Source of the DNA: a virus
Direction: 5' to 3' (one strand)
DNA length: 44,878 bases
UHGV virus genome: UHGV-0250870
Made by a program: the position numbers. Positions 1-6,000 of this stretch are shown here, one piece after another (the first letter of the stretch is position 1; each line of letters opens with the position of its first letter).

Positions 1-3000
1 TATCGCGTCCTCAACAATGAATTTTGTGATGCAGTGCCTGGTGCCTCCAGGTGACGTTAACCAGTTAACAATTAACGCCGGATACAGAGAATCCACCCAT
101 AACACTGTTTTTGGTTTTAACTGTTCCGCGTGCGCTTAGCCGCATTCACCGCATCACAAAATTCACTTTAAAAAGGGCGGCAGAGCAGTCACGGAGTAAA
201 ACTGATACCGCCAAACGTCACCAGAAAATTGATAACAGAGGGCGTTGCAGCGGGGTTGTCACTTAAGCGTATGGTCAACCTGACAACCCGGTGTCCTCAA
301 CGGTGGAAGGAATAACCCCGCCATACTTACCGCCGCGCCATTTCGCGGATTGCCACAACCGGAAGCGCACGGTCGACGAAAATTTAACGACAGGCTATCT
401 ATGAACCAGCTACCTCGCCGTGCGCTTTCGCGTTATGGTCTGACTTTTCAGGGAAATATCCTTTCAGTAAACTGTCAGTGCCGGATGCTCACCCGTGTCC
501 GGCGCACGCACTCCACCTCACCCGTGGAGAACTCCTTAATTACCAACCTTAGCTTCGTTGGTTAGCTATTCACGCGGGTATGTAATCATTCTGGCAATGC
601 TTAATGCCGCTGCTTTTTTCCAGATTGGTGATATCCTGCTCCAGAGCGGACAGATTTTCAGCCTGCTTAGCCCTGGCTTCATTGGCCCATTTCAAATCCT
701 GCGCTGCATTAATTTTCTGGCGCATCCACTCATAAAGTTCATCATTGGTATAGTCTGGCGCGATGATGACGGGTTCTCGTTTCTGCATACTGATTCCTCG
801 CGGTGCTGCTTCGCTTATCAGCCGTTAGATTTTGCCGAGCTGGAAAGCGCCTGTTTAAACTCACTGAAGCTGAGAGCTTCTTCGCCTTCGGCAAGGCCTT
901 CGAAGTATTCTTCGTAAGCCTTTTCCATGATTGTGTCGAAATCCATATCACTCACCTGAGTTTCTTTCCAGCCAGCGACGGGCACCATTTTCGGTTTTAA
1001 ACGTTTTGCTTTTGGTATACGTCATCGCGGTGAACGTACCGTCCTGGTTGGGGAACACGCCACATACCAGAGATTCGCTGTTGCCAAGATCGATAGTATC
1101 CATGCTGACCTCATTTCCCCTTAACGCCGGGGTAGCGGAACAAAAACCTGCTGCATAGTTATTAAAGTTGAACCCTGCCGTCATGTTCTTACGCCTCGGG
1201 CTGGCTACTTAACCCCTGACCACTGCCTGGTAACTAGAAGTATTGCCCTGCATTCTGTGGGGTGGGGAGAGGGAATGAATTAAGTTTAGAAAAATTAACT
1301 TTTCAGGTCAATGTTTTTTATTAAAACATTTTAAGCAGGCAGCTGTTAAGCCATCACCACGATGGCATACAGTTAATCAAATAGATGAGGTCGGTTAAAT
1401 ATTTTGTTGAATTTTAAAGCATACGCCCAATATGCAAGATAGATCATCCAGCATAATTGAAGGGTAGCGAGGATTCGTGGGGACTAAAAGAATATCCGGC
1501 CCTTCTATCTCCAGTTTACGAATGACAGGTGTTGTGGTCCCTTTGGGTAAGGCAAGGACAATATTTCCTGGTTGTACGGTTCGATCGGGATCAACAAAAA
1601 CTGTTGAACCATTTGGGATGGAAACTCCCCCACCAGATGTTGACATACTGTCACTCTCTAGAACAACTGCAAAGGTATTGGCCGGGATTTCTCCGACAAG
1701 CTGCACACAAGAGGTTATTGAGGAATTTTTCATATAATCACTCCTATTAGACGTCAACTAGTTTTGCCGACTCGCGCCAACTATACTGGCCGCACCCTTC
1801 AGTGCGACATCAAGTCGCGCTTGTTACTGCCTTCGCTGTCTTTTTCCTGTAGCTTTCACCTTTCAGTTCGAACATATATCCGTGATGGATCAGCCGGTCT
1901 GCCGCCGCCACCGCCATAGTCTCATCCACGAAGATGCTGCCCCACATGCTGAACGGATGGTTACTGGTTATCACCAGGCTCCCACGTTCATAGCGATGCG
2001 CTATTAACTCGAACAGTACTCCCGTTTCGGCGCTGTCGCGTTTGACATAGCCAAGATCATCCACCACTATCACCCGGTAGCGATCCAGTTTCAGTAGCAG
2101 CTCATTCAGTTTCAACTGCGCTCTGGCTTTACGTAGTTCCTGCAACAACTCTCCTGCGCTGTAGAACCGGGCCCGGTAGCCCTGGCCTACTACGCCATCC
2201 ACGATCGCTGCCGCCAGATGGCTTTTCCCCAACCCGCTGGCTCCGAACAGCAGAACGTTTTCTCCTGCATCAACCCAGTCTGTCGTTTCACAGAGTTGCC
2301 GGAACTGAGATCCATTCAGTTCCGGCACCTGACTGAAGTCGTATTCGCTTAGCGTTTTGGCAACTGGCAACCGGGCCTCCTTTTTATAACGACGCAGTTT
2401 TTCACTCTCGCGCCACAGGAGTTCTTCATTGCATAGCGTCAGAAGATAGCGCGATGGTGTCCAGCCTTCTGCCAGTGCTCGTTTTTCCAGAGCGTGCCAT
2501 TCAGCTCCAACTCGTGTCAGGCGTAGTTTACGCAGGCTGCGTTCAAGGTGATGGATATTGCTCACTGCGAACCTCCCTTGCCACGCAGTAGTTGCTCATA
2601 ACTGCTCAGGTTATGCTGTTTCACATTGACTACCGGCAACGCCTTTTCCTTTATACCCAGGAAGCGCATCAGCCGGTGCAGATCCACGTTTCCCGGGGTA
2701 TTCAGCATCTGCTCCATACCTTTTGCCACGACTGAGATATCGTCGTATCCTGCAGCCAGTTTCAGAGCATGTACCATCAGCCTGCCTGCCATGTCGGGTT
2801 CCAGATGATTACATAAGCGACGCCACAGCCTCCGCCATTCATCGTCTGGCAGGATGTCATTTCTCAGCGTTGCATGGCAGAACGCACCGGGCTTTTTTGC
2901 CAGACTGTCGATCACATGTCGGAAGTCGATACGACGGGCCCGCGTCTTCCCTTTTTCTGGTCTGACACGTGGGCAGCTCATGACCTCGCTGCTGCCAACG

Positions 3001-6000
3001 TAACAGCTCAGACGATCGTCCCATAACCGGACCCGTAACAGTTGACCTACAAGCCGGGAAGGTACGCTGTAGACGACGTGCTTCACATTGATGGTACTGC
3101 TGCGGCTAACCCTCACAGTCAGCTCATCATAGTCAGCACTGCGACGAAGCGGCAGCGGTTTCAGATGAAGACGTTCTTCCTTGACCAGATCCTGATTGTT
3201 ACGGTTGTGCCGCATAACCTGCTGAGTGATGAAGGCCTGATATTCTTCTATGGTGCTGAAGTCGTTACTGCCCCGCAGTATCAGCGCCTGACAGATACGC
3301 CTTTTCAGATGTCCGTGGGCACTTTCAACCGAGCCATTTTCGTGGCCCCGACCGGCATTATTGTGTACGCCCTGCATTCCGTAGTGCTGACAGAGAGCAG
3401 CATAACGCTCAGTCAGCTCGCGGCGTCCATCTTCGCCCTGTTGTTTCCATGCTGCCCTCAGGCTGTCCGTTTTATGTTCTACCGGCACTCCGCCCAGTTG
3501 TCCGAGGGCTTCCTGCAGACCTTCAGCCAGAGCAGAGAAGCTCTCACCACCCAGCACAACCCGCATCCAGCTCCAGTGGCTCCATTCCAGACGGAAGTGA
3601 TACAACTTATGCGCCAACAACTTACCGGCGATGGTGACAACTACACCTTTCAGTTCAGTAAAGTCCGACAGACCTCGCAGACCGGGCTGATGTCGCTGGC
3701 GGAACATGACCTCCTGCTCTGCACCATACTGTAGCTTCCATTCGCGGACCCGCCGTTGCATTGTTCTTCGAAGGCTGTTGGGGTACTGGCCGGGATATTT
3801 ATCCTGTAGCATCTCCAGCAGAGTTGTTGGTGTCAGAGCCGGCCTCTCTTTCAACAGAGGAACAAGCATGCTGTCCCACACAGCTTCCAGAGGATCTTTG
3901 CGTGTGCGCCAGTGCCGAACACTGTTTTTTGCCCACTCTCCTTTTTCGATCCGACGACCAGAACGGACTGAGATACCAGCCTTCATGGCCGAGATATGCT
4001 GAGTTATACCTTTCTTACGCTGAGTCATATAGTAACTGACCTGAGAAGTATTGAGCGTCACGCCATTTCCTGTTGGATCATGTAAATGACACTCAGGTTA
4101 CAAAACCGGCCAGAATAATCGGCGCCAGGCGGACTGAGTTATTGTCGTCTCATACACTCCAGCTTGCTGCCTGCTGAAGTGATAGTAGCGGAACCGTTTT
4201 TATCGGCGGTAAAGATAGATCAAGCGAATCACCTGTATTTAACTCTCCTCCATTAAGAAGCCAATTTTCGTTTACTTTCAATATTTTTGCCAGTGAACTT
4301 ATGTAACGCGAGGACGGCGCTCCTCCACCGTTCATCCATTGACTTACGGAGCCTTTTGATGCGCCAGTGGCATTGACAAGGTCTTTGCCTTTCAGGTTTA
4401 GCGCATGCATACGTTGGGTTATGCGTTCAGATATTGTTTGCTTGTTCATGTTTTGATTTTAAAACACAGATGGTTTTGTTTCTTGACTTTCTTTGATTTT
4501 GATTATTAAACTTTTGGCGTTCAGTTTTATGGAGCGACTCATGAAAAAATCAGAAGTATTAGGCTATTTTGGCGGAGTTGTTAAAACAGCCGCAGCTCTA
4601 GGAACGTCAAAAACCACAGTCAGCATGTGGGGGGAAGAGGTTCCGTGGAAATGGGCGTTGCTAATTCAGGCAGTCACTGCCGGGGCGCTCAAATATGAGT
4701 TACACATACCGACGGTTGTCATTCCCGGTTCTGATCATAATCCGCCTTCTAACCAAGGGGGGATTCATGAAAATCAAGCATGAACACATCCGCATGGCGA
4801 TGAATGCCTGGGCGCGTCCTGATGGCGAAAAAGTTCCAGCAGCTGGAATAACCCAGGCTTATTTTGAGTTGGGTATGACGTTCCCAGAACTGTATGACGA
4901 CAGCCATCCGGAAGCCCTGGCTCGCAATACCCAGAAAATTTTCCGCTGGGTAGAGAAAGACACCCCTGATGCTGTTGAAAAAATGCAGGCTCTGTTACCG
5001 GCGATCGAAAAGGCGATGCCGCCTTTGCTGGTGGCCCGTATGTGCAGCCACAGTTCTGAATATTACCGTGAGATCGTCGAACGGAGGGATCGGCTGGTGA
5101 AGGATGTCGATGATTTTGTTGCGTCAGCGGTTGTTTTGTATGACCAGATGAATCGCGGCGGCCCGGCAGGGAATGCTGTGGTGATGCACTAAAAGCACGG
5201 TGTTCGGGGGTTTTATGAGCAGCAAGCTTCATGGTCTTGTCTGGGAAGGGTGCGCCTTCACCGGCATGATCTTATCCAGGGTGGCGGTTATGGCCCGTCT
5301 TGCAGACTACAGCAATGACGAGGGCGTGTCATGGCCTGCCATTGAAACTATCCGGCGTCAGATCGGTGTAAGAAGTGAATCCACAGTGAAATCGGCTATT
5401 GCAGAACTGGCGAAAGAGGGCTGGCTGACGAAGGAAGAGCGTAAGGTCGGTGGGCGTAATGTAAGCAATATCTATCGGCTTAATGTGGAAAAACTCGAAG
5501 CAGCTGCGGCGGCGGCGCGTGAGTCATATAAACCGAAAAGAAAAATTAGCCCGGCAAAAAATGACCCGTTAACAGTTGACCCGTCAAATTTTGATGGATC
5601 AACTGTTGATAAAAAACTGCCGATTAGGGGGGCGATGATTGACCCCGATCCGTCAGTATTAAAACCTGATCCGTCAGATAAAAGATCTTCTTGTCCGGAC
5701 GCTTCGCAACCGGACCCGCAGACGGCTGAACAGGATTTTTTAACCCGACACCCTGACGCGGTTGTGTTCAGTGCGAAAAAACGCCAGTGGGGAAGTCAGG
5801 AAGATTTGGTGTGCGCACAGTGGATCTGGGGACGAATCGTGAGTCTTTACGAGCAGGCGGCCAGCTATGATGGCGAGATCACTAGACCGAAAGAACCCAA
5901 CTGGACAGCATGGGCCAATGACGTTCGCACAATGCGGATGCTGGATGGCAGAACTCACAGACAAATTTGTGAAATGTTTGGGCGTCTCCAGCGGGATTCG

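Follow-up and report, generated by a model that had tools for sequence, protein, structure and literature searches.

Insertion sequence (IS) insertions in the cI gene of phage lambda yield clear-plaque mutants, and the inserted elements are flanked by target duplications. The C-terminal domain of lambda cI provides dimerisation and cooperative binding, and operator mutants of the lambda-vir type escape the repressor that is supplied by resident homoimmune prophages. Virulent mutants of lambdoid phages act by mutation of their operators, and some temperate phages have given rise in nature to obligately lytic derivatives with a damaged repressor, for example the mycobacteriophages D29, in which the repressor has a 5' deletion, and MissWhite (PMC6550527). 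In the cryptic prophage Qin of Escherichia coli K-12, loss of the repressor leaves dicBp constitutively on, and such dicBF+ cells are thought unable to form colonies (PMC10448788). Here we describe a 44,878-nt stretch of viral DNA (UHGV virus genome UHGV-0250870; the window refers to this whole stretch), in which the cI-like repressor gene of a lambdoid E. coli phage is cleanly split by a complete copy of ISEc10, an element of the IS21 family. The event itself, an IS knock-out of a phage repressor, is a textbook one. The split is accompanied by private changes at operator-like sites, and the account taken as a whole, in which the split goes together with a clear-plaque, vir-like lytic derivative, is on balance slightly favoured.

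ISEc10 within the repressor gene

The interrupting DNA (1745..4154) is a complete ISEc10 of 2,410 bp with full-length 100% identity to RefSeq-labelled copies, including the active ones of CFT073. Because full-length 100% matches recur in many unrelated chromosomal and plasmid contexts, both termini of the element are fixed. The terminal inverted repeats are imperfect and align over ~48 nt (TATTAGACG... with TATGAGACG...), and the ends differ from the TG...CA that is typical of the IS21 family. Within the element, istB lies directly downstream of istA on the same strand with a 4-nt overlap at 2562-2565, and both products score above the cut-offs of their NCBIfam equivalogs (Table 1). The first-pass annotation of an IS21-family istA/istB element splitting a repressor gene was correct. 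A 2,530-bp ISEc10 insertion is cited in one paper, compared with the 2,410 bp observed here. ISEc10 is active in uropathogenic E. coli (UPEC) and readily transposes under laboratory selection (PMC7482066).

A copy of CACTCC is located directly outside each end of the element, and the empty-site comparison with IS-free alleles proves that it is a 6-bp target duplication, within the 4-8 bp range of the IS21 family. This perfect duplication and the 100% identity of the element to other copies agree with the earlier description of a clean insertion, and the insertion into the repressor gene looks recent. Other copies of ISEc10 are flanked by target duplications of 6 bp (CTCAGC) and 7 bp (CACTCAG), found in FDAARGOS_1258 and AREA_R485. 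The duplications of these three independent insertions (CACTCC, CACTCAG and CTCAGC) are similar and all begin with C, which suggests that targets around CTC(A/C) are preferred. In two of the three compared insertions, the element lies within or next to a DUF4942 gene of a CbtA-type toxin island.

Deletion of 1745..4160, which removes the IS and one CACTCC, leaves a 639-nt open reading frame (ORF) that encodes 212 aa and reads ...QQAASWSDYMKNSS... across the junction. The reconstructed gene matches the top-ranked complete E. coli genomes, UTI89, S88, APEC O1, IHE3034 and ATCC 11775 among them, at 100.0% identity from end to end and with no gap, and translation of the intact UTI89 ORF (NC_007946.1, 1394327-1394965) gives the same 212 residues. 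The helix-turn-helix (HTH) and S24 peptidase frames had been proposed to join once the element is removed, with an alignment of the flanks to IS-free alleles as the check. This alignment was run, and its ungapped match identifies a true empty site and no chance match of frames; the termini of ISEc10 give an exact in-frame junction. The gene is present in 1,042 of 5,426 complete E. coli genomes (~19%), with at least 99% identity in 699 of the 1,042, and a few complete genomes have two copies.

Two readings that would remove the insertion altogether were weighed at this point. In the public records, the repressor could pass for a natively split system with separate HTH and peptidase genes, since RefSeq/PGAP annotates only the C-terminal 112 aa in the IS-free genomes of UTI89, ATCC 11775 and PA45B ('LexA family protein', WP_001362937.1), and PHROG 8558 ('unknown function') comprises this C-terminal half alone. 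However, IS-free DNA contains one continuous 212-aa ORF in UTI89, PA45B and ATCC 11775, the ORF is intact and uninterrupted in 59 of the 59 IMG/VR loci long enough for judgement, and both phrog_4 and lambda cI align across the two halves. The relatives of this phage thus encode one gene at the position where separate genes had been considered, and we read the 112-aa annotation as a start-site artefact on an intact ORF. The repressor start has TAAAAT 6 nt upstream of the ATG and no Shine-Dalgarno sequence; it looks leaderless, a type of start also found in the lambda cI mRNA. The combination of such a start with a strong internal GGAG-ATG is the likely cause of the short annotation. The error is systematic, leaving the HTH half of an immunity gene unannotated in a prophage of ~19% of complete E. 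coli genomes. An artificial joining of the IS to the repressor gene during assembly would be conceivable for a MEGAHIT metagenome contig and an element that is multi-copy in many E. coli genomes. This possibility is very small given the perfect 6-bp duplication and the exact IS ends, the independent assembly of the right-hand junction in two other samples, and the linkage of the IS allele to private single-nucleotide polymorphisms (SNPs). The probability left to a native split is smaller still, and both readings are excluded for practical purposes.

The interrupted locus is rare. A full-length search detected it in 0 of the 5,426 complete E. coli genomes, and the exact IS junction was found in none of the GTDB species-representative genomes or JGI metagenomes. 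The 99-aa product of the truncated gene is on record on two ENA metagenome contigs, both of which end inside the IS, and a private 72-aa variant of YdfC led to a third contig, ERZ27304206:k141_21104, of 49,404 nt. The YdfC variant is recorded only on these three contigs, and the IS lineage was found only in the ENA assemblies ERZ27304206, ERZ27304219 and ERZ27304225, which belong to one series. The window corresponds at 100% identity to positions 4527-49404 of k141_21104, the final 44,878 nt of this MEGAHIT contig, and the first 10,788 retrievable bases of the contig are 100% identical to window positions 1..10788. The remaining 4.5 kb of the contig carries dicB, ydfD, a RecE-like exonuclease gene, xis, int and a 38-codon ompW fragment.

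The two halves of the repressor were delineated as an HTH ORF (4150..4449, 99 aa) and an S24 ORF (1395..1757), and ORF calls and Pfam confirm both. The HTH fragment ends ...PLLSLQQAASWSV* (QQAASWSV). It matches HTH_3 (PF01381) with 23.5 bits, barely above the cut-off of 23, and is also matched by the N-terminal domains of 434, P22 C2 and lambda cI in the PDB. The orphan C-terminal domain matches Peptidase_S24 (PF00717; 50.5 bits, E=8e-14) and has the AGGAG-ATG that the first-pass annotation had indicated, with 7 nt between the two and the ATG at 1736. The longer S24 ORF (1395..1757, minus strand) starts from a TTG and includes 6 IS-encoded codons; a look-up of this 120-aa TTG-start product gave no recorded occurrence. 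No sigma-70-like promoter for the orphan domain was found at the IS junction in the promoter scan. An outward promoter at the IS end was considered as the driver of this domain and rejected: the end has TTGACG without an acceptable -10, and the scan gave no promoter.

Residues 13-204 of the reconstructed repressor align by HMMER with residues 25-224 of lambda cI (structure 3bdn, E=4e-10). In this alignment, Gln-Gln-Ala94-Ala95-Ser-Trp is placed over Val-Gln-Ala111-Gly112-Met-Phe of lambda, and the catalytic dyad is kept, with Ser129 over Ser149 and Lys172 over Lys192. The cleavage-site-like QQAAS that had been pointed out therefore holds in position, at lambda Ala111-Gly112, but the pair itself is Ala94-Ala95 and not the canonical Ala-Gly (or Cys-Gly) scissile bond. 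The spacing from the Ala94 pair to the catalytic Ser, counted from the alignment, is 35 residues versus 38 in lambda. QQAASW, with its Ala-Ala pair, is conserved in every close homologue that retains the linker; the homologue search gave only 12 close relatives in all. Because the pair is Ala-Ala, SOS inducibility is unproven even for the intact 212-aa protein. ISEc10 is located between codons 98 and 99, four residues past Ala94-Ala95, and the predicted 99-aa product closely resembles the N-terminal fragment of a self-cleaved repressor.

Other recorded lesions of the same repressor include in-frame linker deletions that remove the Ala-Ala site (187 aa and 178 aa). A G5>G4 frameshift directly after the catalytic Ser gives a 175-aa variant in ~70 Logan contigs. 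This variant was considered as a second natural knock-out and rejected: the contigs vary in other homopolymers as well (6, 7 or 8 T's in the second leftward operator; cro-ydaT fusions), and the frameshift may be a sequencing error.

Operator-like sites and private changes

A 16-bp site, GTTTTGAT-N4-AAAC, recurs in the immunity region. As rightward operator-like (OR) sites, two or three copies occupy the interval that separates the repressor gene from cro, where they overlap the start of the repressor and the PR-like promoter; two leftward (OL) sites are located at the PL-like promoter (Table 1). The possible OR2 fits the 16-mer poorly and fits better as a 15-mer, which is the spacing made by the private OL2 deletion.

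Over the ~2.3 kb from dicF to cro, six or seven differences separate the IS lineage from the nearest IS-free alleles (UTI89, ATCC 11775 and PA45B). None of these falls in the 639-nt repressor coding sequence, and three fall in operator-like sites. A binomial test of 3/6 changes in 48-80 nt gave p = 2e-4 to 8e-3, depending on the null. In OR1, the G>A change at 4496 replaces the first half-site base, which is G in every other half-site listed. The A is present in 3/3 IS-bearing sequences, and G is present in all IS-free loci inspected. Region 4446-4545 is identical to that of the IS lineage in 0 of 1,032 complete genomes, and the IMG/VR contigs with this PR/OR1 region have 65 G versus 0 A; scans of IMG/VR and JGI metagenomes gave no match to the OR1-A variant, while the wild-type control matched 65 IMG/VR contigs. 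Creation of a new promoter by 4496 G>A was rejected, as no suitable partner hexamer is present.

On the left side, G>T at 1296 converts the OL1 half-site GTTC to GTTA, and OL2 has lost 1 nt in the T-run 1314-1319 (T7>T6), which reduces its half-site spacer from 6 to 5 nt. Position 1296 of OL1 and the OL2 T-run are invariant in ~60 IS-free haplotypes, though adjacent bases vary freely, and the OL2 palindrome AATGTTTTTTTATCAAAACATT is invariant across all examined IMG/VR loci. An OL region identical to that of the IS lineage was found in 0 of 129 matching genomes. C>T at 1322 in OL2 is common to the window and strain PA45B. Judged from the positions affected, the private operator changes look like ones that weaken repressor binding. 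Further to the left, SNPs at 33 and 45, of which at least one is private, are located between the DicF small RNA (sRNA; 175..226, minus strand) and the start of dicB left of the window.

Attachment junction and lifestyle

The locus was initially described as part of a prophage. The ends of the parent contig do not support this setting, since the right end is of the attP type and the contig closes on itself. The two ends of k141_21104 share an identical stretch of exactly 141 nt, the k value of the assembler. The att core TGGTACATGGATATCGATACC is located at ~44743-44764. On the tail side, the junction runs into the phage-borne ompW 3' end (ACGGCTAAG...), the sequence found beside int in the attL of UTI89; a real attR, as in strain MCJCHV-1, is unlike the window, for there the native ompW end (GAAATCCAACGG...) follows, with trpA after it. 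The int-side contig end starts with 5 P-arm-specific bases. The flanks of an integrated prophage (attL, B-O-P'; attR, P-O-B') are absent, with no bacterial flank on the contig and P-O-P' at its right end. The tail-side junction is of the attP type, and the DNA is therefore circular, concatemeric or tandem, with a unit size of 49,263 bp given this junction. The contig is unbroken where a branch to attR would split off. In ERZ27304206 the assembler also passed straight through an IS that is normally multi-copy, a weak sign that phage DNA is dominant in the sample. In E. coli SCU-116 (NZ_CP051719.1, ~20.7-27.2 kb), two ompW-integrating prophages are arranged in tandem, and their internal junction has the order tail fibre, Vap gene, ompW fragment and integrase, which is attP-like.

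ISEc10 entered codon 98/99 of the cI-like gene with duplication of the 6-bp CACTCC, leaving the phage with the 99-aa DNA-binding fragment alone, without the C-terminal domain; this structural part is virtually certain. In the proposed course of events from there, stable repression would be lost, lysogeny would not be maintained, and the phage would be of the clear-plaque type. The same lineage would then have fixed OR1 G>A at 4496, OL1 G>T at 1296 and the OL2 spacer deletion, and these operator changes may allow escape from the repressor of resident homoimmune prophages. Lytic replication is suggested because the contig closes via an attP junction and the lytic genes appear intact. Since dicBF+ cells are thought unable to form colonies in Qin, a stable cI-null lysogen is not expected. 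The immunity phenotype was initially called unclear; the private operator mutations linked to the IS narrow it toward the lytic side, although the phenotype remains a prediction. We give even chances that this descendant of a temperate phage is lytic and clear-plaque, with a vir-like character in part or in full, and is not a silent prophage. More tentatively, and somewhat short of an even chance, the lineage may represent a temperate-to-virulent transition in the wild, in which the operator changes were positively selected and allow growth on the roughly one-fifth of E. coli strains with a homoimmune prophage, and the phage circulates lytically in a human- or animal-associated community.

Several observations weigh against a lytic derivative. 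The overexpressed N-terminal domain of lambda cI can repress, and the 99-aa fragment might retain some immunity. The right side is mutated at OR1 only, whereas lambda-vir requires two OR mutations, and the operators themselves are deduced from repeated 16-mers and promoter overlap. The OL2 T7>T6 change is a homopolymer change that could be an assembly error, as Logan contigs show 6 and 8 T's. The contig breaks only a few bases away from the att core, and a contig from another sample ends at the same spot, which suggests an assembly-graph branch produced by integrated or related forms that were present in these samples. Tandem prophages such as those of SCU-116 also hold an attP-type junction inside the chromosome. 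The reads are not purely virion-derived, because the assembly crosses cos.

These points lead to the principal alternative, a quiescent or cryptic prophage, single or tandem, in which the IS struck the repressor of an integrated prophage and PR and PL are kept down by the 99-aa fragment, by Cro or by a second homoimmune prophage, or in which a lytic defect is present; on this view, compensation or drift would account for the operator changes. We consider this unlikely, yet it carries a considerable share of the probability. IS transposition happens inside cells and often into resident prophages, and the phage family is usually found integrated at ompW. There are tandem ompW prophages whose internal junction is attP-like, a few genomes have two repressor copies, and the contig break so close to the att core is a hint of integrated or related forms. 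DicA, which is related to the N-terminal domain and naturally consists of the HTH part only, functions as a repressor, and the accessory SASA esterase is frameshifted. A resident prophage is nevertheless difficult to reconcile with a contig that lacks bacterial flank and an attR-type junction and has P-O-P' on its tail side. The mutated operator positions are otherwise invariant, and their weakened-binding appearance is the opposite of compensation; drift is unlikely to cluster 3/6 changes in 48-80 nt. Derepression of dicBF is toxic in the Qin model, and the lytic genes look intact. A plasmid-like carrier state such as that of lambda-dv or of lambda N-minus cI-minus carriers, with Cro autoregulating PR, would also account for a circular-type contig with an attP junction and for intact cro and O/P-like replication genes, and lambda-dv is, by textbook account, derived from lambda-vir. 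With Q, the lysis genes and dicB/dicF intact, lysis or filamentation would be expected instead; no partition or plasmid-maintenance genes were seen, and early antitermination and the control of late genes showed no lesion, so that a carrier state is improbable.

Gene content and relation to known systems

The phage is a lambdoid E. coli phage with a ydfABC-dicF-dicB left operon, a P22-type cro and integration at ompW. Full-length genes for replication (O/P-like), Q, holin/lysozyme/Rz, terminase, portal, capsid protease, tail and fibre were identified by tblastn and Pfam, and only the accessory SASA esterase gene is frameshifted. The accessory cargo comprises a homologue of the QueH epoxyqueuosine reductase, a hok/sok toxin-antitoxin pair, a DNA methyltransferase, the sRNA STnc100 and three tRNAs (Met/Ile-CAT, Arg-TCG and Arg-TCT). 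The Vap gene beside attP is also annotated at the right end of the ompW prophages in MCJCHV-1 and SCU-116.

Table 1. Positions of the features described in the 44,878-nt window (a dot marks features given no strand)
Feature	Position	Strand	Remarks
YdfC, private variant, 72 aa	570..788	-	+1 frameshift (extra T) at 614; last 15 residues replaced
PL-like promoter (TTGACC-17-TAAACT) of the ydfA-ydfB-ydfC-dicF-dicB leftward operon	1283..1311	-	promoter scan
Putative OL1, GTTAATTTTTCTAAAC	1284..1299	-	overlaps PL -10; private G>T at 1296
Putative OL2, GTTTTTTATTAAAAC	1313..1327	+	just upstream of PL -35; private 1-nt T-run deletion
Orphan S24 peptidase domain	1395..1736	-	residues 101-212 from ATG 1736 (MKNSSITS...)
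Target-site duplication CACTCC, left copy	1739..1744	.	directly outside IS end
ISEc10	1745..4154	-	same orientation as repressor gene; terminal inverted repeats TATTAGACG... and ...CGTCTCATA
istB, helper AAA+ ATPase, 251 aa	1810..2565	-	NF038214, 266 bits vs cut-off 200; PF01695, E=8e-62
istA, IS21-family transposase (DDE), 499 aa	2562..4061	-	NCBIfam equivalog NF033546, 227 bits vs cut-off 160
Truncated repressor, 99 aa, HTH + linker	4150..4449	-	residues 1-98, then Val + TGA from IS end
Target-site duplication CACTCC, right copy	4155..4160	.	directly outside IS end
Putative OR3, GTTTTGATTTTAAAAC	4450..4465	+	abuts repressor start codon
Possible OR2, GTTTTGTTTCTTGACT	4473..4488	+	weak match; tentative assignment
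PR-like promoter (TTGACT-18-TAAACT)	4483..4512	+	promoter scan
Putative OR1, ATTTTGATTATTAAAC	4496..4511	+	overlaps PR -10; private G>A at 4496
cro, P22_Cro family, 80 aa, intact	4541..4783	+	PF14549, E=1e-15
Accessory cargo	8287..8973, 9041..9363, 12637..13686, 13736..13985, 14061..14251		QueH homologue, hok/sok, DNA methyltransferase, tRNAs, STnc100
SASA-family carbohydrate esterase, frameshift-split (162 aa + 472 aa)	14961..15449, 15397..16815	+	single 618-aa gene in relative
VapA/VapB-family moron beside attP	43831..44283	+	Pfam R_equi_Vir, E=5e-34 (Rhodococcus equi virulence-associated family)
141-nt stretch identical to other contig end	44738..44878	+	att core, then phage-borne ompW 3' end (P-O-P')

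With its exact empty-site control, the locus is a clean illustration from nature of how a host IS can turn a temperate phage obligately lytic. If the linked operator changes are confirmed, they would represent a natural counterpart of lambda-vir and provide an operator map for a repressor type that is present in ~19% of complete E. coli genomes. Such a map would be useful for prophage-induction work in UPEC and avian pathogenic E. coli (APEC) and for the design of lytic derivatives.

Compared with the IS mutants of lambda cI, the locus shares a host IS inserted in a lambdoid repressor gene and the accompanying target duplication, and loss of lysogenic maintenance would be common to both. It differs in that the element is ISEc10 of the IS21 family, the insertion comes from a metagenome and was not selected in the laboratory, and the break in the linker spares a complete DNA-binding domain. 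The changes at conserved operator-like positions on both the OL and OR sides resemble those of lambda-vir. In contrast to lambda-vir, one OR site is changed, a repressor knock-out is combined with the operator changes, and both the operators and the effect on binding are predicted. Similar to D29 and MissWhite, this is an environmental phage of temperate ancestry in which the integrase and att site are kept and the repressor is inactivated; it is set apart by an IS insertion in place of a deletion, by enterobacterial hosts and by a lytic lifestyle that is so far presumptive.

The DicA/DicC-dicBF system of Qin in E. coli K-12 contains the same ydfA-ydfB-ydfC-dicF-dicB operon and divergent Cro-like and repressor genes, its dicBp is the analogue of the PL-like promoter (PMC10448788), and the N-terminal 71 residues of the repressor match the DicA model (E=1e-10). 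DicA, however, has 135 aa and no peptidase, compared with the 212-aa HTH and S24 protein encoded here, and Qin is a remnant whereas this phage is complete. The intact repressor corresponds to lambda cI and LexA (MEROPS S24) in its combination of an HTH domain with an S24 domain bearing a Ser/Lys dyad, and differs from them in its Ala-Ala pair.

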